Virus record (IMG/VR): IMGVR_UViG_3300015050_000552
Coordinates: 1-24,322 of that record
Strand: one strand, 5' to 3'
DNA length: 24,322 bases
Origin: a virus
Taxonomy: Duplodnaviria > Caudoviricetes
A model generated the notes under the pieces. It did not search any database. It worked only from the letters and a program-made list of their open reading frames with translations, and was not told where the DNA came from. Shown piece by piece: positions 5,131-24,322 of this stretch (position 1 is its first letter; each line of letters starts with the position of its first letter). Position numbers and translations under genes: made by a program.

Positions 5131-6025
5131 AGCGCCTGCGGCTGCGGCCGGAGAAGATAACGGAGAGGTAGAAGATCTTTCTGCGTCTCCTGAAGATTGG
5201 GCTGCGCTCTCGGCCGAGACTGATGAAGATGAACCGGCAGCACCCGTTGCGACGCCAGCTCCTGCTGCGCCCGCTCCGGCACCTGCTGCCGCTCCGTCGC
5301 CTTCACCAGCTCCGGCTCCCGCACAGCCCGGTGCGCCGGCAACACCTGCAGCTGCTCCTGCGGCTCCTGCAGCAACACCAGCAACGCCTGCAACTCCGGT
5401 TGCAACGCCTGCTGCGCCAGCACCCCAGAGAACGGCCGAGGAACTGGAAGCAGAAGCCCGGCAAGCTGCGAAGACTTATCAGGACGGCTTGGAGAAAGCT
5501 TATCAACTTCCTGAAGACCTCGCAACGCAGGTAGCCACAGAGCCGGAACTCGTGCTGCCTAAGATTGCTGCGCAACTGCACATGGCAGTGGAACACGCGG
5601 TGCTTCAACGTGTTTCCCAGATGATTCCGGGGTATATCTCACATCACCAAGTTATCACGGTGAAGGAAGAGCAGGCCAAAGCGGCCTTCTTCGAGGCAAA
5701 CCCTGATCTGACAAACTATGACGCTCAAGTGCGGCAAGCCGGTCTGATGTTCAGAAGCTTGAACAAAGACGCAACTCCGGAACAAGCGATTCTGGCTATC
5801 GGGAATATGGTGAGATCGGCGATGGGTCTGCCGGCTTTGCAACCGAAACCAGGTGCTGGAGCGGGGCCTGCTGCCTCCGCAACACCAGTGGTTGTCACCC
5901 GTCCTGCTGGGACAGGCCATAAGCCTGCCATGCCGGGCTCTGGTGGCGGCGCTGCGCAACCTGCGGCTGGTAATGAGTGGGGCAATATGGCGGAAGCTAT
6001 GATCGCGGAAGATCAGGCGCCGTAA
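5012..6025 (+). CDS. capsid scaffolding protein
   Basis: AAGGAG RBS. Acidic, Pro/Ala-rich disordered N-terminal half and a helical core. Immediately upstream of the major capsid gene. Confidence 0.8.
   Translation: MNLTRKILQRLEMPEGETGSTSSTSPAPTPSPTAAPATPEAPAAAAGEDNGEVEDLSASPEDWAALSAETDEDEPAAPVATPAPAAPAPAPAAAPSPSPAPAPAQPGAPATPAAAPAAPAATPATPATPVATPAAPAPQRTAEELEAEARQAAKTYQDGLEKAYQLPEDLATQVATEPELVLPKIAAQLHMAVEHAVLQRVSQMIPGYISHHQVITVKEEQAKAAFFEANPDLTNYDAQVRQAGLMFRSLNKDATPEQAILAIGNMVRSAMGLPALQPKPGAGAGPAASATPVVVTRPAGTGHKPAMPGSGGGAAQPAAGNEWGNMAEAMIAEDQAP
5235..5430 (+). repeat. low-complexity Pro/Ala/Thr coding repeats (PAAP, ATP) within the scaffold
   Basis: Degenerate GCT/CCT/GCA/ACA codon repeats encoding PAAPVATPAPAAPAPAPAAAP...ATPATPATP. 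Confidence 0.75.
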
Positions 6026-6047
6026 GCTTCACGAAGGAGAAGTAAAG

Positions 6048-7316: not shown

Positions 7317-7338
7317 GACGACGAAGAAACTGTAATAC

Positions 7339-7373
7339 AGCCCGGGTTCATTTCACACTTGAACCCGGGCTTT
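7339..7373 (+). terminator. intrinsic terminator-like hairpin after the capsid gene (probably leaky)
   Basis: Perfect 12-bp stem AGCCCGGGTTCA / TGAACCCGGGCT with a 9-nt loop and only a short T run. Lies in the only sizeable intergenic gap of the operon. Confidence 0.7.
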
Positions 7374-7385
7374 AACGGAGGCTCT

Positions 7386-8093
7386 ATGAGCTCTTTACTG
7401 CAGAAGTTTAAAGAATTGAATGTGTATGTCGCTGTTCCATCCCAAGGAATGTGGGTGGCCGACTTCGGCACTTCGCTTTGCAATATGTTGACTACCTGTG
7501 GTTCGCACAGGATTGAGAATTACAAGACGCAAAAGATTCACACTATGTCGTCCAAGGGATCGGTGCTGCCGAAACTGCGGTGGAATGTAGTTGAGGAATG
7601 TCAGAAGAAGGAAGCTGACTACTTGTTGTTTGTGGACAGCGATCAGACGTTCCCTCGCAGCACGTTGCACCGGCTTATTAAACATGGTAAGGATTGTGTG
7701 GGAGCTAACATTGCGACCAAGACAATACCGACGCAGCCGACTGCGCGGATTATCACGAAGGAAGAGCCGATTTTTGGCTCGCCGGTGTACACTGACCCGG
7801 AGTCAAAAGGGCTTCAAAAGGTATGGAGGGTAGGCACCGGGCTGGTGCTGCTCTCGAAGAAAGCGATCAATACGATCAAGCCTGAAGACTTTGACATGTA
7901 CTGGCGGGAAGATGTGAAGCTGCATCAGGGTGAGGACTGGACGATGTTTGCTGCTCTTGAGAAGGCAGGCATCGACGTTTGGGTAGATCATGACTTGTCG
8001 AAAGAAGTCGGACACGTCGGTCTCTTTGAATTCACACATGAGTATACAGGAGAGGTGAAGCATGTGGGTCATACCGTCTCGCGCGCGGCCTGA
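7386..8093 (+). CDS. glycosyltransferase, GT-A fold (GT2-like)
   Basis: Start reassigned to ATG 7386 (GGAGG RBS). VYVAVPS strand, DYLLFVDSD (DxD), GTGLVLL, GEDW, VWVDHDL...GHVG. Confidence 0.85.
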   Translation: MSSLLQKFKELNVYVAVPSQGMWVADFGTSLCNMLTTCGSHRIENYKTQKIHTMSSKGSVLPKLRWNVVEECQKKEADYLLFVDSDQTFPRSTLHRLIKHGKDCVGANIATKTIPTQPTARIITKEEPIFGSPVYTDPESKGLQKVWRVGTGLVLLSKKAINTIKPEDFDMYWREDVKLHQGEDWTMFAALEKAGIDVWVDHDLSKEVGHVGLFEFTHEYTGEVKHVGHTVSRAA

Positions 8094-8754
8094 TTGGCTG
8101 GCACGTCTCTGCGATTCTTTCGGGCCGGAAGACCTGAAGGAACCGGTTGCAGTTATACTCTGCAAAGAAGACCCGAAGTGGGACGAATACTATCGTCGCC
8201 AATGGCCTGAGACTTGGAGCATCAACTTGGCTCCGGAAGGTCATACGTATTGCGGAGAGAAGATGAATTGGGCACTGGCTCAATTTCCGAAAGCGAAGTT
8301 CTACGGGCATCTGTGTGATGATGTCTGGATCAAGACGAAAGATATGTTGCCGCAGCTTTCTGCCGCTGCTGGGGATTGGAAGATCAGCTACCCCGGTGAC
8401 GGTATCTATGACGATCAGGGAAAGGAGGCGATCATCTGTTTTCCTTGTTCTGGGGGTAAGTTGATACGAGCTCTCGGCTGGTGGGCTCACCCAGATTTGA
8501 AGCATAACTGTATCGATTCGGTGCTGACAGATATTGCCAGGATGGTGCCGGATTGCGAAGTTAACATGCGGCATTTGGAACTTGGTATGGTGCATCCGAG
8601 TGTCCGCAAAGATACGTGGGACGAGACTTACGAGCGCGTTGAGCTTATCAACCTCGAAGCCGGAACCATTTACCATCGAGTGTGGGATCGTCAGCCAGCA
8701 CAGAAAGACGCTCTCAATCGTATTCGTGAAGCAATGGAGGCCGACCGTGGCTGA
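8062..8754 (+). CDS. second putative glycosyltransferase, GT-A fold
   Basis: GAGG RBS. VIPSRARP start, EKMN, GHLCDDV (DD metal motif), ALGWW...KHNCID, C-terminal HP, in the order typical of small GT2-like proteins. Confidence 0.7.
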   Translation: MWVIPSRARPDWLARLCDSFGPEDLKEPVAVILCKEDPKWDEYYRRQWPETWSINLAPEGHTYCGEKMNWALAQFPKAKFYGHLCDDVWIKTKDMLPQLSAAAGDWKISYPGDGIYDDQGKEAIICFPCSGGKLIRALGWWAHPDLKHNCIDSVLTDIARMVPDCEVNMRHLELGMVHPSVRKDTWDETYERVELINLEAGTIYHRVWDRQPAQKDALNRIREAMEADRG

Positions 8755-9082
8755 AACAACGAAGAAGTCTAAAGTTAAAGGCAAGAAAGTTGTTGACTCT
8801 TGCTGCGCACTTCCTTGCGGCGATTATAAGCCGAGGCTTTATCTTGATCTGGAAGGTAAAGATGTCAGTCAAGTAAAGGGTTTGACTGTCGGGGAAGAAG
8901 TCTGGTGTCTCATTAAAGGTAAGGTTGTCGGGCTCGAGCAGCGCGAGCGTTCCGACAGCGACGGTGAGATGAAGAAAACAGGTTCGATTCAGCTGGAAGG
9001 TTATGAAGTCGATGTGTTGGCCGAAGAGCCGAACGACTTCGTGAAGATGGCCGATGAAATGACTGAAGGAGATCAGTCATGA
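8747..9082 (+). CDS. small beta-rich hypothetical protein, possibly capsid-associated
   Basis: Start reassigned to GTG 8747 (GGAGG RBS, GTGGCTGA overlap). 111 aa with pattern PRLYLD...LTVGEEV..IKGKVVG...SIQLE. Confidence 0.6.
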   Translation: MAETTKKSKVKGKKVVDSCCALPCGDYKPRLYLDLEGKDVSQVKGLTVGEEVWCLIKGKVVGLEQRERSDSDGEMKKTGSIQLEGYEVDVLAEEPNDFVKMADEMTEGDQS

Positions 9083-9468
9083 GCAGTGCAGTCTATCCGA
9101 AGGCTCTGGACGCGATTGGTAAAAAGCTGATCGATTTGACCACTGACGACATTCGCGTGATGCTGCTCAAGGCGGCGTACACTTACGATCCGACAGATGA
9201 GTTTATCGCAGATATTGGAGCTAACGATAACGGCAGATCGGCTGCGGCGATTGGCGGAAGAACAATGGCCAGTGGCGTGCTGGATGGGAGTGATACGAGT
9301 TTAACCGCTACAGGAGCTGTATCTTGTGATGCAGTTCTTGTTTTCTTGCATACTGGTTCAGATGCAACTGCCAGGCTTTTAGCAAGATTAGAGGGCTCGG
9401 CTTTCACTCCTGCAGCCTCACAGCCTATCAATGTGCTGTTTCATGCAAGCGGAATTCTTTCGATTTAA
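9079..9468 (+). CDS. virion structural protein (fibre-associated)
   Basis: AAGGAG RBS, ATGA overlap, 129 aa. IDLTTDDIRVMLL...GILSI pattern is one I recognise from phage proteins preceding fibre genes. Confidence 0.6.
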   Translation: MSSAVYPKALDAIGKKLIDLTTDDIRVMLLKAAYTYDPTDEFIADIGANDNGRSAAAIGGRTMASGVLDGSDTSLTATGAVSCDAVLVFLHTGSDATARLLARLEGSAFTPAASQPINVLFHASGILSI

Positions 9469-9471
9469 GTC

Positions 9472-10884
9472 ATGGCTGATCGCTATTGGGTAGGCGGCAC
9501 TAACACTTGGAACGGCACAGCCGGCACCAAGTGGGCCACTACGTCTGGTGGCGCTGGTGGTGCTGCTGTCCCTACTTCTTCAGATGATGTGTTTTTTGAT
9601 GCTAATTCTGGGGTTGTAACTGTAACTGTCTCAGGTTCCCCCGCTTGCAGGCATTTAAATTTTACTGGTTTTCCATCTGGCGCTGCCATAACTACTGGCG
9701 GTATTGTCACGCTGGTTTTGGGTGGAGATATTATCATTCCATCTGGCAGCCTTGCAACCTATACATTCTTTGGCTTTGTAGCGCCGACAGCTAGTGTCAC
9801 ACACACTTTAGATACGAACGGGGTAGTGCATCAATTTATTATAAACTCGAATGCAAACAACGCTACAATCAATTTAGCTTCTGATTGGGTCACAGATTCT
9901 TCGACCGCAGCAAGACCGTCCGGAATGATCTTCACCGGCACTGGTGCAGTTTTTAATACTAATAACTATAATATGACGTTGAGTGATTTTAATAATGGCC
10001 CAGCTGGAACTATAAATCTTGGCTCTAGTATTATTACCCTAAAAGAGCCAAGAACGGGGGCTGGGCAAGGCTTTGTCTCTCTTTCTGGTGCTGGAACAGT
10101 GAATTTTGGCACTTCAAAAATAATACTGCAATGCGTTGGAAGCAACAACAGAACTTTTGCTGGTGCCGGTAGAACTTTCTATAATTTGGAGATTACAGGG
10201 TCAACTTCCGGGAACTTAGTCTTCACTGGATCAAATACTTTCAACGAGTTCAGGTGTTCTATCGCACCTAAAACTATTCATTTTACTGCTGGCACAACAA
10301 CCACTGTGTCTGCTTGGGTTGTATCTGGGACACCTGGTAACTTAATTACTATTACCAGCCCCACCACTGCTACTCACGCTTTGGTAAAAACTGGTGGGAT
10401 AGTCAGTTCAGATTATCTGAATTTGAGTTATTCCGCAGCTACTCCCGCTTCGACGTGGTATGCTGGGGCTAATTCAACTAATAGTGGTAACAACAGCGGT
10501 TGGTTATTCTCTGCAGGTGCGTTTGATTTCAGCCCGGGATTTGGCTCGAATACCCCACAAGCCTTTGGCTTGACGCCTGGCTTAGAGATGTCTACAGCTA
10601 TGAATACCAGTACAGCTGCAGGTTATGTGCCTATCTTAAATCTAAATGTAGCGCTTGAAATTGCAGTAAGTCAAGCATTTGCTTATGATGCAGGAATATC
10701 TGGTGGTATGTCTGTCAGTCGTGCTGACGGGCCTCGTGCTGCTTTTGATGTAGGCTTTGAATTCCGCTGGAATGACCAAGAACCGCTGTCTGGTTCTTGG
10801 TCAAAGCAATCGGTTAAATCGCCAGGTTGGATTAGCCAATCTGGTTTAAATAATTCGTGGACTGAACAAGAGAGCGAGACATGA
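9472..10884 (+). CDS. G/T/S/N-rich beta-helix-like fibre or adhesin protein
   Basis: 470 aa. N-terminus RYWVGGTNTW...VPTSSDDVFFD, repetitive beta-solenoid-like strands, C-terminal WxxQ repeats. Visibly AT-richer than the flanks. Confidence 0.7.
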   Translation: MADRYWVGGTNTWNGTAGTKWATTSGGAGGAAVPTSSDDVFFDANSGVVTVTVSGSPACRHLNFTGFPSGAAITTGGIVTLVLGGDIIIPSGSLATYTFFGFVAPTASVTHTLDTNGVVHQFIINSNANNATINLASDWVTDSSTAARPSGMIFTGTGAVFNTNNYNMTLSDFNNGPAGTINLGSSIITLKEPRTGAGQGFVSLSGAGTVNFGTSKIILQCVGSNNRTFAGAGRTFYNLEITGSTSGNLVFTGSNTFNEFRCSIAPKTIHFTAGTTTTVSAWVVSGTPGNLITITSPTTATHALVKTGGIVSSDYLNLSYSAATPASTWYAGANSTNSGNNSGWLFSAGAFDFSPGFGSNTPQAFGLTPGLEMSTAMNTSTAAGYVPILNLNVALEIAVSQAFAYDAGISGGMSVSRADGPRAAFDVGFEFRWNDQEPLSGSWSKQSVKSPGWISQSGLNNSWTEQESET

Positions 10885-11525
10885 TTAAAAGTGCTGTGAT
10901 TACGATTATCAAGAATCGTCTTGGTCAGCGAACCGATCTGGACGACTTCATCACGACGGAACTGGATTTGCAACAGGAAACCGCATTGGAGCGGAACGGT
11001 CGGATTGTACCTTGGTTTATGGAGTCCGAGGTAGCTTCAACGACTATGGAAGTTGGTGAGCAGCGTGTTCCAATTCCTGCTGACTTTGCAATGGCAAAGG
11101 AAGAAGGCGGGCTGTTCGTCTACCGAGCGGATCAAGAAGAACCTTGGATTCCGTTAACCAAGGTGGACTACGACGATGCAGTGATGAAATATGGCGATCA
11201 GACCGGACAGCCAGAAGTCTACTCGATGGGTGGTGACTACTATCGGATGTTTCCTATCCCTGATCAGGAATACGTTTTGAAACAGATTTACTTCCAGACG
11301 GATACTCCGCCGTCAGCTGTAGCTGCTGGTTCTTACAACAAGTGGTTGCGGTATGCACCTGACTTGGTGATTGCGCAGATGTGCGTATATCTCGCCTCGT
11401 TTTATATGCAAGACTTTGACTTAGCCAAAGTGCATCAAACTGCGTTGCAGGCAGCTTGGGATCGACTGCATGTCGAAACCGAGTCACAGAAGCATACTGG
11501 CCGTCAATATCAGATGGGGCGCTAA
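10881..11525 (+). CDS. head-tail adaptor protein (T7 gp11 / P22 gp4-like slot)
   Basis: 214 aa. Motifs VPIPADF, GQPEVY, FPIPDQEY, NKWL..APDL are typical of podovirus adaptors. Confidence 0.72.
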   Translation: MIKSAVITIIKNRLGQRTDLDDFITTELDLQQETALERNGRIVPWFMESEVASTTMEVGEQRVPIPADFAMAKEEGGLFVYRADQEEPWIPLTKVDYDDAVMKYGDQTGQPEVYSMGGDYYRMFPIPDQEYVLKQIYFQTDTPPSAVAAGSYNKWLRYAPDLVIAQMCVYLASFYMQDFDLAKVHQTALQAAWDRLHVETESQKHTGRQYQMGR

Positions 11526-13653: not shown

Positions 13654-15249
13654 ATGGGTAAAAAGAAGACAGTCGCTATCCCGATCGCTGGCCAATACGG
13701 CATAGTTGTTGATGTGTCTCCCCAGGAGATGCCGTTGAACGCTTGGAGTGGTGGGAAGAATGTGCGTTTCCGAGACGGATACGTAGAGAAATTCTTCGGG
13801 CATGTGGCTGTCTTCGACCCGCCGGTAGTTCCTCCGTATTGGGCGCTGCCTGTGCCGACGGTGCAGGGTTTGCTTTGGCTGTATGCTGGACTGCAGAAAG
13901 TCTATGCGTGGGATGGGGCTGCGCATTTTAACATTACTCGGCAAACTGCTTCAGTAGATGTAGATTATTCAGCGAATGCAACGTTGAACTGGACAGGTGG
14001 TTTACTTGGTGGTGTGCCTGTAATCAACAATGGAGTTGATGCCCCGCAGATGTGGTTTCCGGCGGAAACTGGCGTGAAACTGGAAGAATTAGGTAACTGG
14101 CCAGCTTTGACAACATGCCGCGCTTTCCGTTCATTCAAGCAATACCTGCTTGCTATGGATGTGACGAAGAATACCGACCGCTTCCCCTTTATGGTGAAGT
14201 GGAGTCACGCCGCTGATCCTGGTGATATTCCGGTAAGCTGGGACGAAACAGACGAAACACGGGATGCTGGTGAGTATGAGATTAAGGAGTCCGGTGGTTT
14301 CGTGCTGGATAGTATTCCGCTGAAGGATACGAACGTCATCTATAAAGAAGATGAAATCTGGGCTCAGCAGTATATAGGTGGGATTAACATCTTCAAGTTT
14401 TTCCGACTCTTCGGGACTATTGGAGCTTTGTCTCGTCGGTGCGCTATTGAGATACCTGGCGGCTATCACTTGGTCTTTGGCTCGAATGATATTATCAAGC
14501 ATAATGGCGTCGAGGCAACTTCGATCTTGGAAGGGAAGTATCAACGGCGGATATACTCGACGATTGATCCAGACAATTTCGCTAAGTGCTTCGTAGCTGT
14601 AAATAAGGCAGCACGGGAAGTCTGGTTCTGTTACCCGGAGACCGGCAACACACTGCCGAATATCGCACTTGTCTGGAATATGAAGACAGGTGCTCTTGGG
14701 TTGAGAGACATTCCGAACGTCACTCACATTGCCGCTGGTTTAGTTAACTTAGGAGTTAACTCCGATCTCTGGTCGTCGAATGACGGGACTTGGGATGACT
14801 GGGCGCAGGCGTGGGGCGAGCGTGAGTTTAATCCATCACAAGAGAAACTGTTACTCTGCAACCCTGTGTTGACTAAACTCTTCCGAGCAGACACCGATAC
14901 AACTTTCGATCTGCAGCCGATGGAGTCTTACATCGAGCGTGTAGGTCTCGGTTTTCCGCTGAAAACGGGAGAATCGCCTGACTTTACTTCCAAGAAATTT
15001 GTATCGCGTATCTGGCCGAGAATTTCTGGAACGATCGGAGGTGTGGTTAATGTGCACCTCGGCACGCAAGAGAAAGTGGACGGGCCTGTAACTTATAAGC
15101 CGAGTAAACCCTTTGTTATCGGACAACAGGAGCACGTGGATATCATGGCTGACTCACGTCTCCACGCTCTCAAGTTCTCCTCAGATACCGCTTTGGAATG
15201 GAAACTGCACAGCTACGACGTAGACGTTCGTAAGTCTGGGGAAATGTAA
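13654..15249 (+). CDS. tail nozzle / DNA stabilisation protein (P22 gp10 / T7 gp12-like)
   Basis: 531-aa beta-rich protein (NVRFRDG, VKWSH, EVWFCYP, ALVWN), located between the adaptor/fibre and ejection genes. Confidence 0.8.
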   Translation: MGKKKTVAIPIAGQYGIVVDVSPQEMPLNAWSGGKNVRFRDGYVEKFFGHVAVFDPPVVPPYWALPVPTVQGLLWLYAGLQKVYAWDGAAHFNITRQTASVDVDYSANATLNWTGGLLGGVPVINNGVDAPQMWFPAETGVKLEELGNWPALTTCRAFRSFKQYLLAMDVTKNTDRFPFMVKWSHAADPGDIPVSWDETDETRDAGEYEIKESGGFVLDSIPLKDTNVIYKEDEIWAQQYIGGINIFKFFRLFGTIGALSRRCAIEIPGGYHLVFGSNDIIKHNGVEATSILEGKYQRRIYSTIDPDNFAKCFVAVNKAAREVWFCYPETGNTLPNIALVWNMKTGALGLRDIPNVTHIAAGLVNLGVNSDLWSSNDGTWDDWAQAWGEREFNPSQEKLLLCNPVLTKLFRADTDTTFDLQPMESYIERVGLGFPLKTGESPDFTSKKFVSRIWPRISGTIGGVVNVHLGTQEKVDGPVTYKPSKPFVIGQQEHVDIMADSRLHALKFSSDTALEWKLHSYDVDVRKSGEM

Positions 15250-15494
15250 TGGAGAAGTATGAAGCCAGCGAAGTTTCAACCATCGAGCCAACTGGGGTGT
15301 TCGGTTGGGCTGTGGAGGAGTTTCGCAGGATTTCGGCGGCGTTCTCAACTATTCATGAACTCGACACTTACCACGTCGCGCCGAAGAAAGCACGCACTGG
15401 CATGCTGGTAATCGCTGATGGGACTGACTGGGACCCTGGAGCTGGTCAGGGTGTTTACTGCTATTACAACTCAACTTGGAATCGTCTTGGCTGA
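15249..15494 (+). CDS. small tail-tip / needle-like virion protein
   Basis: TAATG coupling. Short helix followed by GMLVIADGTDWDPGAGQGVYCYYNSTW, a small beta-domain pattern common after nozzle genes. Confidence 0.65.
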   Translation: MEKYEASEVSTIEPTGVFGWAVEEFRRISAAFSTIHELDTYHVAPKKARTGMLVIADGTDWDPGAGQGVYCYYNSTWNRLG

Positions 15495-15966
15495 ATTTGA
15501 CACACCTGAATGGCGGGCAGAGCGTAACGCAAAGCTTGCCGAGTGGTTTCTCCATAACGGAGATGCCATTGCTCTTTTCCTTGATTTCTGTCAGTTGTCC
15601 GAAGTATGGGACGACTTGATTGATAAAGATAAGATTCCGACGGATGAGGAAGTTTCGGATACATTCAACAGTATGTTGATTCGGCTTCCTACAAATCCGT
15701 TTTACTTGAGATATCAAGGTTGGTTTACTTGTCTCTCAATTCTTGTGGTGAACGCTTATCATGATGCAAACCAGTTTCAACTTGGTGATAAGCGGCAGCG
15801 TCATATTGCTTACCATTTACGTAAGATGATCATTGAATTTGCTTGCCTGATCGCGTTCTGTGCGGGTGGTTTTCCTCACATGCGTAAGGTGAGTTTAGAG
15901 ATTCGCGAGTTTTTCATCCGCGAAACCTACGAAGACTGGGAGCTTTCTGATGCGCAACTTCATTAA
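15487..15966 (+). CDS. all-helical protein with DDxxD motif (possible isoprenoid synthase / prenyltransferase fold)
   Basis: Start reassigned to TTG 15487 (TTGGCTGA overlap). WDDLIDKD at the end of a helix (15607-15630). The gene is well supported; the function is inferred. Confidence 0.5.
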   Translation: MAEFDTPEWRAERNAKLAEWFLHNGDAIALFLDFCQLSEVWDDLIDKDKIPTDEEVSDTFNSMLIRLPTNPFYLRYQGWFTCLSILVVNAYHDANQFQLGDKRQRHIAYHLRKMIIEFACLIAFCAGGFPHMRKVSLEIREFFIRETYEDWELSDAQLH

Positions 15967-16885
15967 ACTATTGTTCAGCGTGGTGACGCCGCTCTACTTC
16001 GGTGGTGGCGGAGGCGCGCAGCAATCGACTACAACAACGCAGAATTTCTCTCCGGAGGAAGCTGCGCAGCGTGCTCTGGTTCAGCAGGAAGCTACGAGGA
16101 TTTACCAGAGTAGCAAAGACCAGATTGCTAATTCTCCGTATCCAGGGGCGGCGCCGGTTCCTCTGGGCCCAGATTCGTTGCAGGCGCAGGACATGCTGCG
16201 CACTTGGGCAAATGGAGCTGGAACTACCGGAGCACAGACTGCTCAAGGTTATTCCGATTTCCTGATGACAGATGCGATGAAGGCGGAGTCGAATCCGTAT
16301 CTTCAAAGTGCTATCGGTGCTGCGACACGTCCGATAGATCAGGCTTACACAGACCCGGGTGGCGTATTCAGCTCTATCCGGACAAGCTCGCAGCAAGCAG
16401 GTCCGAGCACACGGCAAGGTATCGCTGAAGGTATCGCAGGTCGTGGTTACCTGAATGCTGTCGGTGATGTGTCCAGTAAAATGGCATATCAGAACTATGC
16501 AGATTCGATGAAGAATGCGACGACTGCATTAGCTCTTGGCCCGCAGACAGCACAGCTTGGCCAAATGCCTGCAATGGCGATCGGAGCTATCGGTCAACAG
16601 AACGAGATGATCCAGCAGATGCAAGGGGATTATGCCTCTCAGCAGAAAATGTGGGAGCTGAACGCTCCGTGGGCGCCTTTGCAGAATTACGCTAACATCG
16701 TGTTCGGCGGAGCGGCGCCCGGAACGACCTCGACTTCAACAGGTGGCGGCTCACAATCTCCTAATCGAGCGATGGGAGCTCTTGGTGGCGCCGCTCAGGG
16801 GGCAATGCTCGGTTCAGTTGTGCCGGGTATAGGCACCGCAGTCGGAGCTGGTGTCGGCGCATTGCTTGGCTTATTCGGTAGCTAA
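15950..16885 (+). CDS. DNA ejection / pilot protein 1
   Basis: GGAG RBS. GGGGG-QQSTTTTQ near the N-terminus, NPYL motif, Q/A/G-rich body, C-terminal glycine zipper (GAAQGAMLGSVVPGIGTAVGAGVGALLG). Confidence 0.75.
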   Translation: MRNFIKLLFSVVTPLYFGGGGGAQQSTTTTQNFSPEEAAQRALVQQEATRIYQSSKDQIANSPYPGAAPVPLGPDSLQAQDMLRTWANGAGTTGAQTAQGYSDFLMTDAMKAESNPYLQSAIGAATRPIDQAYTDPGGVFSSIRTSSQQAGPSTRQGIAEGIAGRGYLNAVGDVSSKMAYQNYADSMKNATTALALGPQTAQLGQMPAMAIGAIGQQNEMIQQMQGDYASQQKMWELNAPWAPLQNYANIVFGGAAPGTTSTSTGGGSQSPNRAMGALGGAAQGAMLGSVVPGIGTAVGAGVGALLGLFGS

Positions 16886-16898
16886 CAGGAGAACTTAA

Positions 16899-17306
16899 AT
16901 GATGGACTTTTCTGCAATTACTCCGGAAATGCTGAACACTTTGGCTGCGGACTGGAATCCGATGCCGATGCTGGAACAGCTGAACACTCCTGCAAATGCC
17001 GTATTAGGCGGACAAAATCCGATGCCTGCTGCGGATGGAGGCTACTTCAATATGCTGAACGGAGGTCTTGGTCAGGGTGCGCCGATCACGCCTCAAGGTC
17101 CGGCTCAACCTGGTATGACTCCGCTGAACATGCAGCAGATTGCTGCCCTACAAGGCAGCATGGCGAAGCCTCAGCAGATGCCGAACCCTGCGGCGGTGTC
17201 TCCGAGTAACAACTCGAGGGCGATCTCCACTGTGCCGATTCCTGGAGTAAATTCTCCAGGTATTGCGCCGGGCTTGAATCAAATCCTGCAAGGAGGTAAG
17301 CGATAA
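16899..17306 (+). CDS. M/P/Q/G-rich putative ejection protein 2
   Basis: AGGAG RBS. Low-complexity 135 aa between ejection-type genes. Confidence 0.6.
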   Translation: MMDFSAITPEMLNTLAADWNPMPMLEQLNTPANAVLGGQNPMPAADGGYFNMLNGGLGQGAPITPQGPAQPGMTPLNMQQIAALQGSMAKPQQMPNPAAVSPSNNSRAISTVPIPGVNSPGIAPGLNQILQGGKR

Positions 17307-18484
17307 TGGACTTCCAGCAAATGATGGGCACAATGCCTCAGAGTGAAATGGCTGCTCCGCAGTTTGGTCAGCCGAGCCCGCAGCTTCTTGCTCAGCCGGC
17401 GCAGCCCGCACAGATGCCGTATGCTGCCACACAGCAAGGCTTACCTCCGGAAGTGCAGGCTATGAACACGCCAGTGAAAAGCGCTGAGGAACTTGAGCAG
17501 CGCAAATCTGGCTGGATGGAAGTCATCAAGAAGATTTCCGCTGACCCGAATATCATGAGGGCTATTGGTTACTTTGGGCAATCGGTGGCTCAGCCAATGC
17601 CGCAAGGTCAATCTGCTATCGGACACTTGAGCAACGGTGTGATGACTGGTGTCAACGCCTATCAGTTTGGCAAAGACGCTGAGTTTCAACGGCAAATGGC
17701 TGAGAGTAAGAACAAGCGGGAAGTTGCTGAATCTGAAGCCAACGTCGAAGGCACGAAGGCACGCACTGCCGGCACTGTTACAGACAATGAACTCAAAACT
17801 CGCACTCTGGAAGACAGTGTTGCCAAGGTCAAGACTGAACGTGAGAAGCTTGCTCTTGATCTTGGTAAGGCGAAGGATGAAGCCGAGCGGGCTAAGATTC
17901 AACTTGCTCACGACAAGCGGATCGCAGAGATTCGTACTTCCCTGCCGGACGACAGCTACCGTGCAAGTCTGGATGCGGAGCTCAAAGCGAAAGGTCTCGC
18001 GAACGATCTGTCGAAAGCGCAGGCATCTTCGGCTAATGCTACAGCTGGTTACTACGGTGCCAAAGCTTCGGAAGTCAAGGCCGAGATGGATGCAATGAAA
18101 GGTCTGTCGGACGAAGAAAAGCGGCAATTCATCACCAAAACTGGCAAGTATGCAGGAGGTGTGGGTTCCGGTCAGGCGGTCATGGCGGAATACTACAAGG
18201 GCAATTGGAAGCAAGCCAACCCGAAACGTGCTGGTGAAACTGATGAGCAATACGGCACACGGGCAGCAACCGCGCTCAACTCATATCTGACGACTGCCAA
18301 AGACAAGCCAGAAGCGGATGAATTCCTTCGCTGGGCTGGTCTCTACGGCACTGGTAATTCCACCACAGATATGGCCGCCTTCAAGAAATGGAAAGGCGAA
18401 GCACCTGCAGGTTCAACGCCAGGCGGGGCAGCTACTGCCAAACGTGAACGCACTTTTGACGCTTCTGGAAAAGAAGTCAAATAA
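17306..18484 (+). CDS. coiled-coil internal virion / ejection protein 3
   Basis: GGAGG RBS and TAATG coupling. P/Q-rich N-terminus and a long A/K/E coiled coil. Precedes the giant gene. Confidence 0.72.
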   Translation: MDFQQMMGTMPQSEMAAPQFGQPSPQLLAQPAQPAQMPYAATQQGLPPEVQAMNTPVKSAEELEQRKSGWMEVIKKISADPNIMRAIGYFGQSVAQPMPQGQSAIGHLSNGVMTGVNAYQFGKDAEFQRQMAESKNKREVAESEANVEGTKARTAGTVTDNELKTRTLEDSVAKVKTEREKLALDLGKAKDEAERAKIQLAHDKRIAEIRTSLPDDSYRASLDAELKAKGLANDLSKAQASSANATAGYYGAKASEVKAEMDAMKGLSDEEKRQFITKTGKYAGGVGSGQAVMAEYYKGNWKQANPKRAGETDEQYGTRAATALNSYLTTAKDKPEADEFLRWAGLYGTGNSTTDMAAFKKWKGEAPAGSTPGGAATAKRERTFDASGKEVK

Positions 18485-18492
18485 GGATTCAA

Positions 18493-21400
18493 ATGGGCCA
18501 AGTAATCAACACCACCTATGGCGAAACTTTTAACTTTCCGGATGATACACCTGAGGAAGTTATAAGTCAGACGGTTCGGAAATACGCTCCGAAAGGGCCT
18601 ACGAGCCCGGAAGTCATCTCTGGAACTTTAAGCGCTATTCCAGGTCAGTTGACGGCCGGTGCGCTTGCCGTGAAGTCTGCCGTGCGTATGCCGAAACTTC
18701 CTTTTGTTACAACTGATCCGCTCGAGGAACTGCAACATCTGAATGCGAGTGGTCGGTATGGGCAAGGGGATATGGAAATCCTCAGTCAGGCTTTGCATAA
18801 GAAGCCGCTTGCGCAGGTGACTGAAGAGCATATGGTAGGTGAACGTCGTCGGCAGGAGGAACGTGCGACTGCTGCGACGGTAGGTAAGATGGCCTCGGAG
18901 AATCTGCCTCCGAACATGACGACAGGCGGAGAAGTGCTGAGTTCAGTCGTTGGTAGCGTGGCGACTGCTTTGCCTGCTGTGGCTGCGGGTATTGTGACGA
19001 AGAGTCCGGCTGTAGCTATCGGAACGATGGGTGGAGCTTCTGCACTTACGAGTGCTGGAACTGGTGCACAGTCCAATGCAACGGACTCCGATCTGTTGAC
19101 TACCGCTGCAGCTGTCGGTGGTGTAGAAGCTGCGTTCGAGACGATTCCTACCAAGATGCTGTTCAAGATGTTCGACGGTAAGAATCTGCTTGCGAAAGGC
19201 TTGAAATTCATCGCGGCTGAAGAATTGACTGAACTGCCGACTACCGCGGTGCAGAAAGCCTTGGAAACCGCTGGCTATAACCCTGATACTCCTGCTGATC
19301 AGTTCTTCGCGGAGTTGAAGCATGATCTGTTGATTACCGCTCTCGCCACGCCATTCGCTGCTGGCACTCAGGCAGGTATGGTTGCTGGTGTTCAGAAGCT
19401 ACAAGAGCGTTCTGCCGGTAAGACGATAGGCGATCTCGTTGGTGAAGATATCGACAAGATTCGTGAACTGAAAACGAATCTCGATCTTGCACAAGAACTG
19501 CAAGAAATGGGTATTCCTGTCGACTTGAAGCAAAAGCAGGATGCTTACAATATGGCGCTGCGGAAGTATATGGAGCCGCCGGAAACCCCGGGTTCAAGTG
19601 AGACTAGTCCCCGGGATAAACCCACAATCCAGACAAGCGTGCTTTCCCCTGAAACCGCTGCTCTGATTCAATCAATTGACGCTGAATTAAATCCGGAGAA
19701 CATAACCGATGAACAGGTTTCTCAGGCAAGGGCGCAGGTCGCAAGTTTTGAAGAAGCAACAAAGAGACCTGCAAGAGATGAAAGCGTTGCTCACCTCCGC
19801 GGGCTTGACGACCTCCAGCACGAAGGCGACATCGGAGAGTCTGCAAAGGTTGCAAGAAACGCTATCAACTACGCGAATGAGAATGACTTAACTGCGAGGA
19901 GTGAACGGCCGATTATTGCTGGGCCTGCTGGCACGGAAGGATTGACGCTTCAGCAAGTTGAGATCGAGAAGGTGCCTGGTGTGTATGCGGTAGGTTTGCC
20001 AACAGCGGATCGCTCAGAGGAGTTTACACGAGCTACGCAGGAGACGCTCGAGAAGTGGCGGGCCCAGTATCTGCCGAATACTTCGTTTATCTTGCTGAAT
20101 GAATCAGTGCCAACGCGCAATGCTGGTGGCTGGCACTCACGGCTTGGAAGCGGCGTGCATGTGATTCTGCCCAATGCGTTGCGGAATCTGAAGAATCCTG
20201 CACAGTATAACACGAACGCGCAGTTTAAGCAGCTCTACACGCTAGCGCATGAGTTCGGGCACGCACTGTTCGATGAAAAGATGTTCGAAGGTGTCGAGCC
20301 GACCGTGCGCCAACTGGTGGAAACACAGGGGCAACTTGGGTTAGTTGGAGAAGAGACACTGGCTCAACTTCCTGAGGCGCAAGCTGGTATCCTGCGCGAA
20401 TTCAATGCGCTTAAAGCGAGGGTAATGAGCAATGAAATCACGGCGCAGGAATTCATCAACGAGTGGATGGGCCCGGCGAAGATTCACCGCTCAAGCTTCG
20501 CTGCCGATCACGGAGTCTCAGGCGATGCCCCCGCTATACAGCTCGTCGACGCTATCATCCGGCGAAGCATCCGAACAAATGAATCGCTCACTGGAGAACA
20601 GCTTTTCAAACTCAGGAACGAATTCCTGGGAGTGAATGAGTATTTCGCTGAGCAAATGGCTCGTCATGCGTATGACAAGAAATGGGATGAAAGTTCGGCT
20701 TATAACAAGGAATCGCTGTTTGCGCGGGCTTTTGCTAGCGCGAGAGCTTTGCTCATGGATTTCTTCAAAGATTTAAAGAAAGAAGGTGGTCTGGCTGCTG
20801 GTGTTAAATTCCAGGATTGGCTGGATGGACTGACTGCGGTTCCGGTGCTGGAACAGCAAGAAACTCCGCTTAAGCCTGTCAAGCCGAAGGTGAAGAAAAA
20901 GGCTGCTATACCGAAGAAACCTGCGATTAAGAAAACTGATTTAAACGAGGAAACTGAGAGTAAGCAGCAGATTCTCAATGCCCGTAAAGTCGTCACCGGA
21001 TTGGTTCGCTCTGGTGACATTGAGGCAGGTGGTGAGCAATATAAACACTTCATGCAGCTTATCAAGGCGAATGACTTTTCAACTTTCATCGAAGAAATTC
21101 AGCCTTTGACGGAAAAGAAAATCAAGCTGGAACTGGACAACGATATTCCTGATGTTCGCACAATGGGGCTGCAAATGGACCCCAAGCGTCTCGTTCAGCA
21201 GTTCGGTGCGAATATGTATTCTGGTGACTTGCCGTCGACTATCGTGAAAGAGCTGGTGCAGAACAGTTTCGACGCGATCAAGCAGGCACAGAATAAGGAA
21301 ACCGGCGATCCACTTGAGCAGGTGCCTATTCATAATATTAAGGTCACTACGGACAGTAAAGCTCGCACGATTACTGTGTCAGATACCGGCGTTGGCATGA

Positions 21401-24322
21401 CTCCGGAAATCCTGCAAAAGGCTTTCTTGACGTATCCTGGGTCGAGTAAGCTTGGTTTGAAGCCGGAGCAGGCTTCTGGTGGTCTTGGCCTCGCGAAGGT
21501 GCTGATTCTCTTTGTGCCAGAACGTCTGGTTGTAACGACTATTCGTGATGGTAAGAAGACCGTAATGGATACGACTCCCGATGAGATAATCGAGGGGAAT
21601 ACGCAAGCAGTTGTGACTGATACGGCAGAGGAATCTGGCACAACAGTTCAACTGTTTCTGCCTGCTGTGATCGAGCGTCCGAGTGGTGTTGAAGAAGTTG
21701 AAATTTCAGGTTATCCTTGGAATTATAAGGCGCTGACAAAAGGAGTGTTAGGTCGCGATATTGCGATTACACTGAACGATTTGCCAGTTACTACTTCTTT
21801 TGCTGAATCGAATACAGAAACTCTCGAGAAAGACTTCTCTTGGGGAAAGGCAACAGTTCGCTTTAATCCGAAGGCTGGTATCTATCCGACTCAGGATGTA
21901 TACAGTTCTGGGCTGTATCAGTTCGAGACACAGCTTCGCTTGCCGAATGGCGAAGATTTGCCGTTTAATGCTCAGATCAACATTGAACCTCATGTAACCG
22001 CGAGTGAGGCTGCATACCCATTCGAGAACAATCGGCAGAATTTCAAGAAGCACGTTATCAAAGATATCGGCGAGTTAACCTTCAGTTTATACGAGGAATA
22101 CATCGCTGCCCGCTTGCGGGAAAGTGCTGATACTTACTCGCAGGTAGTTGGTTTGAGTGAGAATCTGATTCAGCCAAATATCAATACGACGACTACCAAA
22201 GATGGTAAGAATATTGAAATGGATATAGGTATTCCTGACAATATTCCGCTGTATAACAACATGACGAACTTCGACTTTCTGGGACTGCCGGAATATAAGA
22301 AGATGCTGACTCGTATCGGCAATGTCTTTACGTCTGTTGGCCAGCGAGTTGCTCGTATGCCTGGAATTGGAAAGCCAAGCTGGGATTTGGATAAGCCTAC
22401 CCATTTCGGCGTCTTTTTCCAGAAGAGCCCGAAGGGAGGCGAACTCTTCGGCATTAACATGGTTAAGCCATATCAAGCTATCTTCATCAATCCGGTAGCT
22501 GGTAAGAAGCGTGAAACGGCTGAAGCTATGGCCGAGGAAATCTACCAAACTTTCGTGCATGAATTAGCTCATATTCCTGAGCGTTCGCACGACGCTGATT
22601 TTGCCAATGCGCTTGCTGAAGTCCAAGTGCTCATGGCCGAGTCTAACCTCATGAACCGAGCGCGCGGCTCACTCTTGAACATAATCCGCGAGAACTTCCA
22701 AACCTATAAGGATATGTATGACACCTATCACAACGTCAGCACAGTTAATCAGGGACAATCTTTTGAAGGAACACAAAGGGAAGACGCCGGCACTCAAGCT
22801 GGAGCTGACCTTGGTGGGCCTGGAGACGCACGCAGCGATAGCCAAGCAGGAGGGCGAACTGGAGCTGGCAGCCGCTCTGGAAGAGGAAATATCGAATATG
22901 AACTCGATGATGATGGTGGCTTCTCCATCCCCCACGCCGGCTCCGAGCTCAGCCCAGCAGCCCTCACCGCAGCAGCCGCCGAGTGGAAGCGCGCCGGTTT
23001 CCGCTCTCGTTTCTTCACCGCCTGGTTCGGGGACTGGGAAGGCGACCCCTCCGGCAGCAGCAAAGCCTTAAACTCGCGTGGAGAGCCGCTGGTTCTGTAT
23101 CATTCGAGCCGAGCGAAGGTAAATACTCCGCGTGGAGAAGAGCCTTTTGAAGTGTTCCAGAGAGGTGATATTGGGTACCACTTTGGCACTACTTTAGCTG
23201 CCCACGCGCGTGCACTTATCGGTCCGGCGGAGGAATTCTCCAATCCGTCTCAGGCTGATATCGATGAGATTATCTGGAGTCGTGAGTATCCCGCAGCGTT
23301 GAACTGGGGTAAAGGCGAAGTCACCCCGTTTTACATTATGCCTGTTGTTTTGAATATCAGGAATCCTGCTGTAGTAGAGGACGAAGTGCCTGATATGTGG
23401 CATAACCCTGATGTGATGCTTGCTGTGCTGGAAGAGGCAGGAATACTGACTTCTGAAGATGTGTCCATCATTGAACTTGCAGAGGGAAACTCCGATCATA
23501 CGAGGATGATGAACATTCGTGACTTTCTTGACTTGAAAGGTTACGATGGTATTAAGTATGACAACATCATCGAAGGTGGTGTATCGTGGGTTGCTTTCTA
23601 CCCGAATCAGGTGAAGTCTGTCCTCGGCACTAAGGTGTTCTCGAAGCTGCCGCAGATTCACTACGAGACTGAGTATGACGATGCTTCTCCTTCAGGTCAT
23701 ACCGCAGCTCGTTTCCGTGACAAGATGAAGCCGTTCTTCCCTGACTATGGTATGTTCAGGAGAGCCTTCCGTTCAGTCACGAACCTGCAATATAAGGTTC
23801 TCCAGCTTCAACAGCTGGCCCATATCCACCCTGATCTAGCTGACTTGCAATTCATGGTTGAGACGAACATGAATTACAACCGCTATAAATCGAGTCTTCA
23901 GGAGGCAGCCGACGGTATTTCTCAGGAATGGGAAGCGTTGGGGAAAGAGAACTTCTCACGGATAAATAAGATGCTTCAGGACGAAGCGTCAGCTGGCGCT
24001 CTGTGGGTTGATCTGCATAAGAATCCGCAGTCAGGACAGTGGGAGTATATTCCAAACGCTGAAACCGAAAAGCAGCTGAAATCCCATGGAATAGACGTTA
24101 ACACACAGGCTGGAAAAGACGTAGCTGAGCTTTTCTTAAAGGTGAAAAACTCTCTTCTTTCCAATCTTAACGAGACCGAAACAGTCCTTATCTCGCTCAT
24201 CGCACGTCGCTATGCTGCTGCTCCACAGGGGACACTTAACGCCGCTATTATCCCACTCAAGCGTGAAATCCATGAAATCAGGAAACGTCCGTATTTCCCT
24301 CAAGGGCGGTTCGGAAACTATA
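18493..24322 (+). CDS. giant polyvalent internal virion protein, 3'-truncated (zincin + GHKL ATPase + zincin + ADP-ribosyltransferase-like + PLxRFG-like)
   Basis: Absent from the ORF track. TAAGGA RBS, ATG 18493, no stop in frame +1 to the window end (at least 1943 codons, translated by hand). HEFGH 20248-20262 and EYFAE 20638-20652; ELVQNSFDA 21250, DTGVGMT 21382, SGGLGLA 21475, GTTV 21637; HELAH-x5-H 22558-22590; WFGDWE 23023, PLVLYH, PVVLNIRNP, GYDGIKY, AFYPNQVKS; YFPQGRFGNY 24292. Confidence 0.92.
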   Translation, partial: MGQVINTTYGETFNFPDDTPEEVISQTVRKYAPKGPTSPEVISGTLSAIPGQLTAGALAVKSAVRMPKLPFVTTDPLEELQHLNASGRYGQGDMEILSQALHKKPLAQVTEEHMVGERRRQEERATAATVGKMASENLPPNMTTGGEVLSSVVGSVATALPAVAAGIVTKSPAVAIGTMGGASALTSAGTGAQSNATDSDLLTTAAAVGGVEAAFETIPTKMLFKMFDGKNLLAKGLKFIAAEELTELPTTAVQKALETAGYNPDTPADQFFAELKHDLLITALATPFAAGTQAGMVAGVQKLQERSAGKTIGDLVGEDIDKIRELKTNLDLAQELQEMGIPVDLKQKQDAYNMALRKYMEPPETPGSSETSPRDKPTIQTSVLSPETAALIQSIDAELNPENITDEQVSQARAQVASFEEATKRPARDESVAHLRGLDDLQHEGDIGESAKVARNAINYANENDLTARSERPIIAGPAGTEGLTLQQVEIEKVPGVYAVGLPTADRSEEFTRATQETLEKWRAQYLPNTSFILLNESVPTRNAGGWHSRLGSGVHVILPNALRNLKNPAQYNTNAQFKQLYTLAHEFGHALFDEKMFEGVEPTVRQLVETQGQLGLVGEETLAQLPEAQAGILREFNALKARVMSNEITAQEFINEWMGPAKIHRSSFAADHGVSGDAPAIQLVDAIIRRSIRTNESLTGEQLFKLRNEFLGVNEYFAEQMARHAYDKKWDESSAYNKESLFARAFASARALLMDFFKDLKKEGGLAAGVKFQDWLDGLTAVPVLEQQETPLKPVKPKVKKKAAIPKKPAIKKTDLNEETESKQQILNARKVVTGLVRSGDIEAGGEQYKHFMQLIKANDFSTFIEEIQPLTEKKIKLELDNDIPDVRTMGLQMDPKRLVQQFGANMYSGDLPSTIVKELVQNSFDAIKQAQNKETGDPLEQVPIHNIKVTTDSKARTITVSDTGVGMTPEILQKAFLTYPGSSKLGLKPEQASGGLGLAKVLILFVPERLVVTTIRDGKKTVMDTTPDEIIEGNTQAVVTDTAEESGTTVQLFLPAVIERPSGVEEVEISGYPWNYKALTKGVLGRDIAITLNDLPVTTSFAESNTETLEKDFSWGKATVRFNPKAGIYPTQDVYSSGLYQFETQLRLPNGEDLPFNAQINIEPHVTASEAAYPFENNRQNFKKHVIKDIGELTFSLYEEYIAARLRESADTYSQVVGLSENLIQPNINTTTTKDGKNIEMDIGIPDNIPLYNNMTNFDFLGLPEYKKMLTRIGNVFTSVGQRVARMPGIGKPSWDLDKPTHFGVFFQKSPKGGELFGINMVKPYQAIFINPVAGKKRETAEAMAEEIYQTFVHELAHIPERSHDADFANALAEVQVLMAESNLMNRARGSLLNIIRENFQTYKDMYDTYHNVSTVNQGQSFEGTQREDAGTQAGADLGGPGDARSDSQAGGRTGAGSRSGRGNIEYELDDDGGFSIPHAGSELSPAALTAAAAEWKRAGFRSRFFTAWFGDWEGDPSGSSKALNSRGEPLVLYHSSRAKVNTPRGEEPFEVFQRGDIGYHFGTTLAAHARALIGPAEEFSNPSQADIDEIIWSREYPAALNWGKGEVTPFYIMPVVLNIRNPAVVEDEVPDMWHNPDVMLAVLEEAGILTSEDVSIIELAEGNSDHTRMMNIRDFLDLKGYDGIKYDNIIEGGVSWVAFYPNQVKSVLGTKVFSKLPQIHYETEYDDASPSGHTAARFRDKMKPFFPDYGMFRRAFRSVTNLQYKVLQLQQLAHIHPDLADLQFMVETNMNYNRYKSSLQEAADGISQEWEALGKENFSRINKMLQDEASAGALWVDLHKNPQSGQWEYIPNAETEKQLKSHGIDVNTQAGKDVAELFLKVKNSLLSNLNETETVLISLIARRYAAAPQGTLNAAIIPLKREIHEIRKRPYFPQGRFGNY
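22718..23071 (+). CDS. candidate nested (overprinted) small helical protein inside the giant gene
   Basis: TAAGGA (22707-22712) lies 5 nt before ATG 22718. The first ~60 codons read as an amphipathic E/L/A helix with typical codons (CTG GAG, GCC AAG CAG GAG), exactly where the main frame degrades to a G/A/R/S linker. Confidence 0.55.
   Translation: MTPITTSAQLIRDNLLKEHKGKTPALKLELTLVGLETHAAIAKQEGELELAAALEEEISNMNSMMMVASPSPTPAPSSAQQPSPQQPPSGSAPVSALVSSPPGSGTGKATPPAAAKP

Follow-up and report, generated by a model that had tools for sequence, protein, structure and literature searches.

An Hsp90-like ATPase joined to a Wss1-like zinc-protease domain, with an overprinted partner gene, in a giant ejection-type protein of an uncultured podophage

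The window analysed here, a whole virus record of 24,322 bases (IMGVR_UViG_3300015050_000552; Caudoviricetes), covers the virion module of a podophage and ends in a giant open reading frame (ORF) of polyvalent, ejection type. Inside this ORF we find a module in which an Hsp90-like GHKL ATPase and an S5-type transducer domain are followed by a Wss1/WLM-type zincin, and a second, small ORF is overprinted in the +1 frame on the tail of the protease. The class of virion proteins to which the giant belongs is known, but the enzyme module and its overprinted partner appear to be undescribed. We propose, with almost as much confidence as doubt, that the module is an ATP-gated protease injected against host proteins and silenced during assembly by the overprinted protein. 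The features on which the argument is built are the following (aa, amino acids):

18493..24321, + strand: giant polyvalent ejection-type ORF, 1,943 aa, open at the contig end (3'-cut), with about 700 aa probably missing
21148..21672, + strand: GHKL (Bergerat-fold) ATPase domain, Hsp90-like, aa 886-1060; Pfam HATPase_c E 1e-8, above cut-off
21673..22137, + strand: S5-type transducer/middle domain with invariant YPF-x3-R; R1181 at 22033-22035, within YPFENNRQ
22231..22740, + strand: Wss1/WLM-type zincin domain, aa 1247-1416; HExxH-x5-H at 22558-22590
22707..22712, + strand: Shine-Dalgarno-like TAAGGA, 5 nt before the hidden ATG
22718..23071, + strand: overprinted +1-frame ORF of 117 aa, candidate cognate inhibitor; the first ~66 aa form a predicted amphipathic helical core

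Module architecture

An earlier reading made from the letters of the DNA (hereafter the sequence-only reading) had described a GHKL ATPase fused to a WLM/SprT-like metalloprotease, and all motifs that it quoted were found in the + strand frame of ORF 18493..24321. The module corresponds to residues 886-1416 of the giant ORF, with its in-frame start at 21148; a separate gene at 21150 was considered and rejected, since the module is in-frame inside the giant. The ATPase motifs are KELVQNSFDA (E920 at 21250), SDTGVGMT (D964 at 21382), SGGLGLA (at 21475) and SGTTV (T1050 at 21640). Across 115 modules E920, N924, D964, G968, K986, G996, G999 and G1049 are invariant and T1050 is kept in 97%, so that the N, G1, G2 and G3 boxes are all present, and in 92 of 92 aligned modules the ATPase boxes, the YPF-x3-R motif and HExxH are invariant.

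A sequence profile of the module gave its best matches to HtpG and TRAP1 (E 6e-12). In an AlphaFold2 model built from the 92 aligned modules (predicted local distance difference test, pLDDT, 91.3; predicted template modelling score, pTM, 0.86) residues 1-322 adopt a GHL fold and residues 364-504 a Wss1 fold. The former aligned in VIA with the N-terminal and middle domains of the Hsp90 protein GRP94 (Z 22.5, root-mean-square deviation (rmsd) 4.1 over 292 residues), followed by TRAP1 (21.8), ParE (20.6), MORC2 (19.2) and MutL (17.2). Hsp90-family proteins thus came first in all three rankings, by profile, Foldseek and VIA, and the anatomy outlined in the sequence-only reading, including its S5-like region, was borne out by the structural check that it had suggested. 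Among viral models only one, an unnamed protein, matched the whole module (TM 0.76), with rIIA and Hsp90 next.

In the GHL family ATP binding closes the dimer, and an arginine or lysine of the transducer contacts the gamma-phosphate. R1181 is invariant in 92 of 92 modules and lies in a loop at the expected place; from its position it is a candidate gamma-phosphate arginine, the counterpart of the Hsp90 arginine. The sequence-only reading had likened YPFENNRQ to LPLNVSRE, presumably the sequence of the Hsp90 arginine loop.

In the ESM Atlas the whole module resembles bacterial MPN635_N clusters (0.94); the protease domain by itself has similar proteins among small viral ones without a name, 90-130 aa in length (0.91-0.93). 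Far upstream of the module, some giants (P0091, P0109 and P0112) contain a further GHKL-like stretch that is incomplete.

Predicted zinc-protease domain

The putative zinc site consists of H1356 (at 22558), E1357, H1360 and H1366, and both IFINP and TFVHELAHIPERSHDADF lie in the frame of the giant ORF. The general-base glutamate of HExxH is invariant across the family, and the third zinc ligand is histidine in 99 and glutamate in 15 of 114 modules. Folded alone, the C-terminal 170 residues reached a pLDDT of 95, with Wss1 (5xbn) as the top Foldseek match (prob 0.99, E 0.017). Yeast Wss1 was also the sole VIA match with Z of at least 8 (Z 8.4, rmsd 3.3 over 115 residues), ahead of S. pombe Wss1 (7.5), YbeY-type proteins (6.9 and 6.6) and SPRTN (4.8). 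A profile of the domain again placed Wss1 on top among proteins of known structure (E 7e-4), with Wss1 and proabylysin ranking first, and Pfam WLM (PF08325) matched at E <= 0.1 in 18 of 67 members.

Two observations speak against too firm an assignment. The PF08325 match in the window (E 4e-5 to 3e-4, 21-24 bits; 24.1 bits for the domain alone) stays under the 26-bit cut-off, and the predicted likeness to Wss1 is modest, with a Foldseek E of 0.017 and a Z of 8.4 against 6.6-6.9 for the nuclease YbeY. The zincin might instead be another metal hydrolase, a nuclease or a nucleotide hydrolase gated by the ATPase and directed, for example, against immune signals or nucleic acids. The YbeY RNases (Z 5.9-6.9), which rank just under Wss1, would fit such an activity, as would the weak YgjP-like Pfam matches in 12 of the 67 members, YgjP being a nucleotide pyrophosphatase; but YbeY is not known to have a general-base glutamate of the HExxH type, the residue that is invariant here, and the sequence profile favours Wss1 and proabylysin. 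Although Tiamat, in the accessible part of its preprint (bioRxiv 10.64898/2026.09.30.754977), offers a Wss1-like fold used without proteolysis, we consider a non-proteolytic hydrolase improbable.

Pairing and distribution of the module

The ATPase and the protease are joined as a fixed unit. A search that scored only the top 7,990 candidates gave 116 long proteins, of which 114 have HExxH behind the ATPase and two end earlier; all 150 listed cluster representatives have it as well. Whole-module queries favour matches that bear HExxH; a search with ATPase-domain motifs alone, which is less biased, recovered viral loci with HExxH in 61 of 62 cases, the remaining one being cut by the contig end. 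A set of 80 loci gave 79 with HExxH, 77 of which have histidine or glutamate as third ligand at +10, whereas the chance background for HExxH-x5-H/E in 320-residue windows of the same giant proteins is 3 of 427.

At 50% identity, 805 cluster representatives matched at E <= 1e-3, 478 at 1e-10 and 187 at 1e-30; an unknown share of the 805 are ATPase-only matches, and the pairing and length counts come from the best 150 listed. The module is therefore present in hundreds of uncultured phage proteins. From 137 viral loci the best 80 were taken, and in 79 of these the module is part of an ORF of 1,000 aa or more (median 2,828); the domains that flank it vary freely (SLT, lysozyme, ParB, methylase, ADP-ribosyltransferase (ART), LPD22, LPD38 and LPD39). 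Ten loci were found via the phrog_3287 gene of the window; seven of them are truncated or have no visible giant, which leaves three. Of these, L148, on the same contig as the related locus L001, carries the module, and L150 and L156 each have in the same slot a complete PLxRFG giant without it.

Because these same-slot giants do without it, the module appears to be dispensable cargo rather than part of the ejection machinery. A genome-pulling motor or a structural part of the ejection channel would fit its place in the largest protein of the ejection cluster and the ability of GHL clamps to handle DNA, but we judge this very improbable: the module is absent from L150, L156 and cultured PLxRFG phages, and neither the invariant protease site nor the stand-alone copies described below would be explained. 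The lack of a cultured carrier also tells against our reading: when seven family members were compared by tblastn with 50,697 phage records, they found either no match or rIIA and ATPase matches covering 20-26%, and in no case the whole module.

Overprinted gene

A +1-frame ORF beginning with ATG lies over the protease tail in 72 of 73 non-redundant embedded loci, as compared with 26 of 292 control windows inside the module; the sequence-only reading had overlooked the one at 22718-23071. These hidden ORFs have 50-119 codons (median 74) and start 33-81 codons past HExxH; the +2 frame has none. The sole exception (L087) has an 82-codon +1 ORF from codon 25 that the hidden-gene profile misses. 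Six further embedded loci inspected by hand all have the +1 ORF, although the profile gives E 0.06 for L173 and 2.4 for L193 and leaves L194 and L206 unmatched. A Shine-Dalgarno-like word stands in front of the hidden start in 50 of 72 cases, compared with 78 of 927 for other ATGs in the +1 frame. Of 42 HExxH sites elsewhere, no more than 7 are followed by a comparable ORF.

Substitutions were counted in 17 close pairs that do not overlap one another. In the overlap, positions 1, 2 and 3 of the hidden frame have 90, 89 and 174 of them, while just upstream of it the counts are 71, 321 and 119 and peak at the main wobble position. The amino-acid differences in the overlap of these pairs are likewise fewer in the hidden frame (141 of 935) than in the main frame (214 of 918). 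The hidden products are alignable and rich in L, E, A, Q and K, the main frame of the same stretch being rich in G, A, S and R. A profile built without the window, L001 and L004 recovered all three at E 3e-6 to 2e-4 among 3,662 six-frame segments (window, E 4e-5), and matched none of eight stand-alone loci (best E 7.7).

Some results weigh on the other side. When the main frame was resampled synonymously, an ORF of this kind already arose in 30.7 of 72 cases (for the window taken singly, 0.70). The main frame also has a slight advantage in alignment across the full set of 2,556 pairs, with a median score of 39 as compared with 31 for the hidden frame, and the window and L001 tie, with 25 hidden and 26 main identities. 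The hidden-gene loci, moreover, fall into 12, 30 and 47 clusters at 40, 50 and 70% identity, hence only 12 at the first level. We nevertheless hold it very likely that the hidden gene is real at the level of the family. That its product is an inhibitor of the module is plausible, and we lean slightly towards it; position and distribution are the only basis for this role, which counts against it.

No PHROG family matched more than one of 40 hidden proteins, their best matches among known structures were designed helical bundles, and none of ten was present in a collection of 15 billion proteins. One hidden protein used as a query for copies elsewhere brought back only itself. A promoter and terminator scan of 21000-23200 gave six promoter-like sites against 2.1 expected and two terminators against 2.0, with nothing linked to the hidden gene.

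A +1 ORF at 20432-20635, after the upstream HEFGH zincin of the giant, was not accepted as a second case; it is Ser/Arg-rich and belongs to the 7 of 42 sites mentioned above. It is followed directly by another +1-frame ORF (20636-20776), and the two are apparently neither conserved nor helical. In several phages (L021:2-3118 + 3222-6161, L061, L071, L074 and L076) two genes take the place of the giant, which is interrupted a short way past the module; the overprinted ORF is retained, and the second of the two genes carries LPD38/LPD39 where scanned.

Proposed function

In the proposed scheme the giant and the small overprinted protein would be made late in infection from one message, and the small protein would bind and silence the module. 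The giant would then be packaged and the small protein left behind in the producer cell, so that after ejection the module could cut host proteins in the new cell under ATP control. From what is known of GHL proteins, ATP binding would close the dimer, the S5 domain would hold the client and R1181 would complete the ATPase site, and cleavage might for this reason be linked to the ATP cycle. As targets, host defence or takeover proteins would be the most likely class. Stand-alone copies may exert the same activity from non-structural genes without a brake; their distribution suggests that late-expressed embedded copies need a co-translated inhibitor and early stand-alone copies do not. A precedent for such double use are the ADP-ribosyltransferases of phage T4, which, according to the parts of the polyvalent-protein survey available to us, act both from the virion (Alt) and as non-virion paralogues (ModA/B) (PMC5512222); the module likewise occurs in virion-type embedded and in non-structural stand-alone forms.

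The sequence-only reading had placed the action on the incoming genome. On this view a clamp tracking along the DNA would, in the manner of Wss1 and SPRTN, remove or destroy those host proteins that are bound or crosslinked to it. Wss1 is indeed the top structural match of the protease, the DNA-acting GHL proteins ParE and MORC2 follow Hsp90 closely, the protein would arrive together with the DNA, and a neighbouring domain could provide DNA binding. But the module is acidic (median net charge -10.5, positive in 4 of 92 modules and, for the protease part, in 2 of 92, by a crude charge count), has few conserved basic residues outside the ATP site and is nearer to Hsp90, whose clients are proteins, than to MORC or MutL, for which reasons we favour DNA stripping less. 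Stand-alone copies among non-structural genes, which are unlikely to travel with DNA, also make it less supported, and on balance we regard this idea as rather improbable.

Alternatively, the module might serve the phage particle itself, refolding and cutting its own giant polyprotein or other ejection proteins at packaging or after ejection, in which case the overprinted protein could be an assembly co-factor or a timer. The Hsp90-like ATPase and the confinement of the hidden gene to embedded copies would agree with this, and autoprocessing has been proposed for the metallopeptidases of polyvalent proteins, with the processing of P1 DdrB cited in the accessible portion of the survey (PMC5512222). 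It is unlikely, though, in view of stand-alone copies that have the same invariant residues and no polyprotein, of same-slot giants that eject without the module, and of the separate zincin that the giant already possesses upstream.

Returning to the injected, inhibitor-controlled protease, a more far-reaching formulation is that it exemplifies a new class of injected effector, a minimal Hsp90-type clamp with an active Wss1-type protease in a two-gene toxin-antidote cassette, whose antidote is overprinted on the linker of the effector and which moves as a block between giants; this we consider possible but doubtful. In its boldest version the module would imitate host GHL defence proteins (Tiamat, HD-CE-Hsp90, MORC) while being catalytically live, pair with them via its ATPase domain and cut them. 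If the proposal is true, an ATP-dependent protease built on a GHL clamp and not on an AAA+ ring would join the phage-injected proteins, and the overprinted gene would be a possible answer to the question of how a harmful polyvalent protein is made without harm to the producer cell. It would also mean that some G/R/D/S-rich 'linkers' in giant virion proteins may be no more than the shadow cast by a hidden gene which gene callers overlook.

Stand-alone and cellular copies

Of the 150 listed cluster representatives, 20 are shorter than 760 aa, and most of these begin just before the N box and end 50-83 residues past HExxH. The natural stand-alone copies of 520-620 aa make the biochemistry of the module approachable. 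A FastTree tree was built from 112 modules, dereplicated from 277, and rooted on two distant copies; several of its deep nodes have support below 0.5. Stand-alone forms are nested within the embedded ones four times in this tree, as a clade of 13 and a clade of 4 (support 1.0 each) and as P0204 and P0213. A distant stand-alone family with the same invariant residues is represented by L229, L207, L282, L283 and P0276-P0289, and clamp-loader, SbcC and topoisomerase genes adjoin the module in L229 and L282. One further stand-alone copy (L081) is found on a 172-kb phage contig with portal, DNA polymerase, GroEL and RNA ligase genes that was binned in a Roseburia genome, where the module is on the strand of the non-structural genes. 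Many ORFs of this contig (G003:C128) are fragmented under code 11.

The comparison of phage and cellular proteins suggested in the sequence-only reading accordingly returned many viral giants, and with them phage stand-alone copies and a few chlamydial genomes. Among 67 loci from GTDB, seven (L081-L087) belong to the family, five of them on phage-like or very short contigs and two in chlamydial chromosomes; carriers in the chlamydial phylum amount to 3 of 400 scored genomes. A cellular origin of the module was considered and rejected: the other 60 loci match the ATPase only, with no match of the protease domain, and those scanned are HD-CE-Hsp90 or Hsp90-like. The nearest cellular ATPases (L088-L147, L208-L240) are mostly proteins of 750-1,150 aa with the GHKL domain near residue 350, and the three scanned are HD-CE-Hsp90 conflict proteins. 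The stand-alone copies of environmental chlamydiae (L082:9707-11824, L083:9791-11629, L261 and L262; P0137 and P0157) lie among housekeeping genes, as labelled from recognisable translations, and have an N-terminal extension of 60-90 aa, first basic and then hydrophobic, that resembles a targeting or secretion signal. Possibly the phage module has been reused here as a symbiont effector.

Relation to known systems

By testable criteria the giant ORF is classed as a polyvalent protein: two zincins, the GHKL domain, ART-PolyVal and the start of a PLxRFG domain are found in one chain within a late virion/ejection cluster. From the SU10 gene order and the PLxRFG relatives annotated as structural, the protein would be packaged and injected. 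With the phage-type polyvalent proteins as described in the parts of Iyer 2017 at hand (PMC5512222; P1 DarB/DdrB, N4 virion RNAP, PLxRFG/NF032893, LPD38, LPD39, ART-PolyVal) it shares a giant multi-enzyme late-virion protein, the zincin and ART, the PLxRFG tail and the predicted injection. GHKL, HSP90 and WLM each gave no match in the main text of that paper, where neither the ATPase-protease module nor an overprinted partner is described.

The module has GHKL and an S5 middle domain with a putative arginine loop in common with the Hsp90 family (HtpG, TRAP1, GRP94), but lacks its C-terminal dimerisation domain, having a zincin instead, and reaches 34 bits against HtpG cut-offs of 371-455; true Hsp90/HtpG, TopoVI-B or MutL were rejected as identities, the scores lying far under the cut-offs. 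The small zincin fold and HExxH-x5-H are shared with the Wss1/WLM metalloproteases (yeast Wss1, SPRTN and minigluzincins such as proabylysin/selecase), from which the phage domain differs by its fusion to a GHL ATPase, its acidity, extra C-terminal helices and its score under the Pfam WLM cut-off, and SPRTN gives a Z of only 4.8.

The closest architecture in print is Tiamat, a host defence protein of more than 1,000 aa that, in the portion of the preprint accessible to us, joins a GHL ATPase and its transducer arginine to TPR-like folds, a PD-(D/E)xK nuclease and a Wss1-like fold that lacks HExxH (bioRxiv 10.64898/2026.09.30.754977). Both chains contain an Hsp90-like ATPase, a transducer arginine, a candidate one in the phage module, and a Wss1-like fold, but unlike Tiamat, as far as it is described there, the phage module is minimal, virus-borne and intact in its protease site. 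InterPro, as cited in the same portion, lists ATPase-DUF3684 fusions that often end in a metallopeptidase, and virion, polyvalent and rIIA are not mentioned in it. No Pfam match to DUF3684 or to a nuclease was found in the giant, and no PADLOC match, and the module model leaves no room for such domains. A DUF3684 cluster in the Atlas is a weak lead (score 0.78); none of 401 genomes yielded a DUF3684 protein for comparison, in a search whose controls were silent too. A known defence system was likewise rejected, as PADLOC gave no match for the module in seven proteins.

With the rIIA-like GHKL proteins of T4, which are the next-best viral folds, the module shares a phage GHKL ATPase and a variable C-terminus. 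A review of jumbo phages (PMC7824862), in the part available, notes that rIIA-type GHKL proteins were proposed as counter-defence and mentions SprT-like peptidases separately. The similarity to rIIA is restricted to the ATPase part (PHROG E 5e-5, and cultured rIIA matches cover 20-26% of relatives), whereas the C-terminus of the module is a zincin in an ejection-type protein. No rIIB was found among the 26 window proteins scanned, on a contig without sequence downstream of the giant.

No description of the module or the overprinted gene was found in the literature searched, a set with subscription papers largely outside it. The view of the sequence-only reading that the fusion is new among characterised phage virion proteins stands for these papers, but the pairing of such an ATPase with a Wss1-like fold does exist, with a dead protease site, in the consulted part of the Tiamat preprint.

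Gene context and the giant ORF

The remaining features of the window are these:

1185..11525, + strand: SU10/phiEco32-like podophage head module (terminase, portal, major capsid, adaptor), by Pfam SU10_portal, SU10_MCP and SU10_adaptor and PHROG terminase
13654..18484, + strand: upstream virion/ejection genes, with a phrog_3287 virion protein (13654-15249), a DNA-ejection-protein homologue (15950-16885) and a gene at 17306-18484
20248..20262, + strand: HEFGH motif of an upstream zincin (metallopeptidase-like) domain, distinct from the zincin of the module, with NEYFAE further on
23077..23628, + strand: ART-PolyVal-like ADP-ribosyltransferase domain, aa 1529-1712; Pfam PF18760 31.1 bits against a cut-off of 31.2, E 5e-7
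24289..24321, + strand: YFPQGRFG, with which the C-terminal PLxRFG (tail-700) domain opens before the contig end truncates it; the same motif is at residue 1923 of L004, where NF032893 begins

Pfam and PHROG scans also identified tail fibre, endolysin and holin genes, besides the phrog_3287 virion protein. The gene at 15950 is similar to L001:4839-5777 (E 1e-84), which in turn matches phrog_4287, 'DNA ejection protein' (E 2e-16), and the genes upstream of the module in other carriers include tail, internal-virion, acetyltransferase and ejection families (64 hand-picked neighbours). The giant is the last gene of the podophage ejection cluster. Its complete orthologue L004 has 2,658 aa, is 36% identical to it over residues 373-1942 and contains the PLxRFG (NF032893) domain at residues 1922-2634; relatives of this domain occur in 62 records of cultured phages, where some carry the annotation structural protein. 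The ejection proteins of SU10, gp20-24, are encoded after the nozzle gp17 and exit the virion at genome release, according to the part of that study consulted (PMC9509320). Since the giant is the last gene of the cluster, shares the PLxRFG domain with giants of cultured podophages, some of whose relatives are annotated as structural, and agrees with the SU10 gene order, it is likely located in the virion. The virion payload of the sequence-only reading is therefore upheld as to its likely place, but what it took for the payload is an internal module, starting at 21148, of an ORF of at least 1,943 aa.

The upstream HEFGH zincin gave only weak Pfam metallopeptidase matches (E 0.009-0.017) and recurs at equal offset in P0003, P0006, P0009 and P0018. 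ART-PolyVal scores above cut-off in the orthologue L004 (34.8 bits). In the window this domain has no glutamate directly before its last strand (GVSWVAF; DTSFVAF in L004 and SDNWVAF in L003). Finally, two glycosyltransferase-like genes (7359-8754; phrog_1574, unknown, and phrog_14945, glycosyltransferase) are located right after the major capsid gene, where they might take part in capsid glycosylation.

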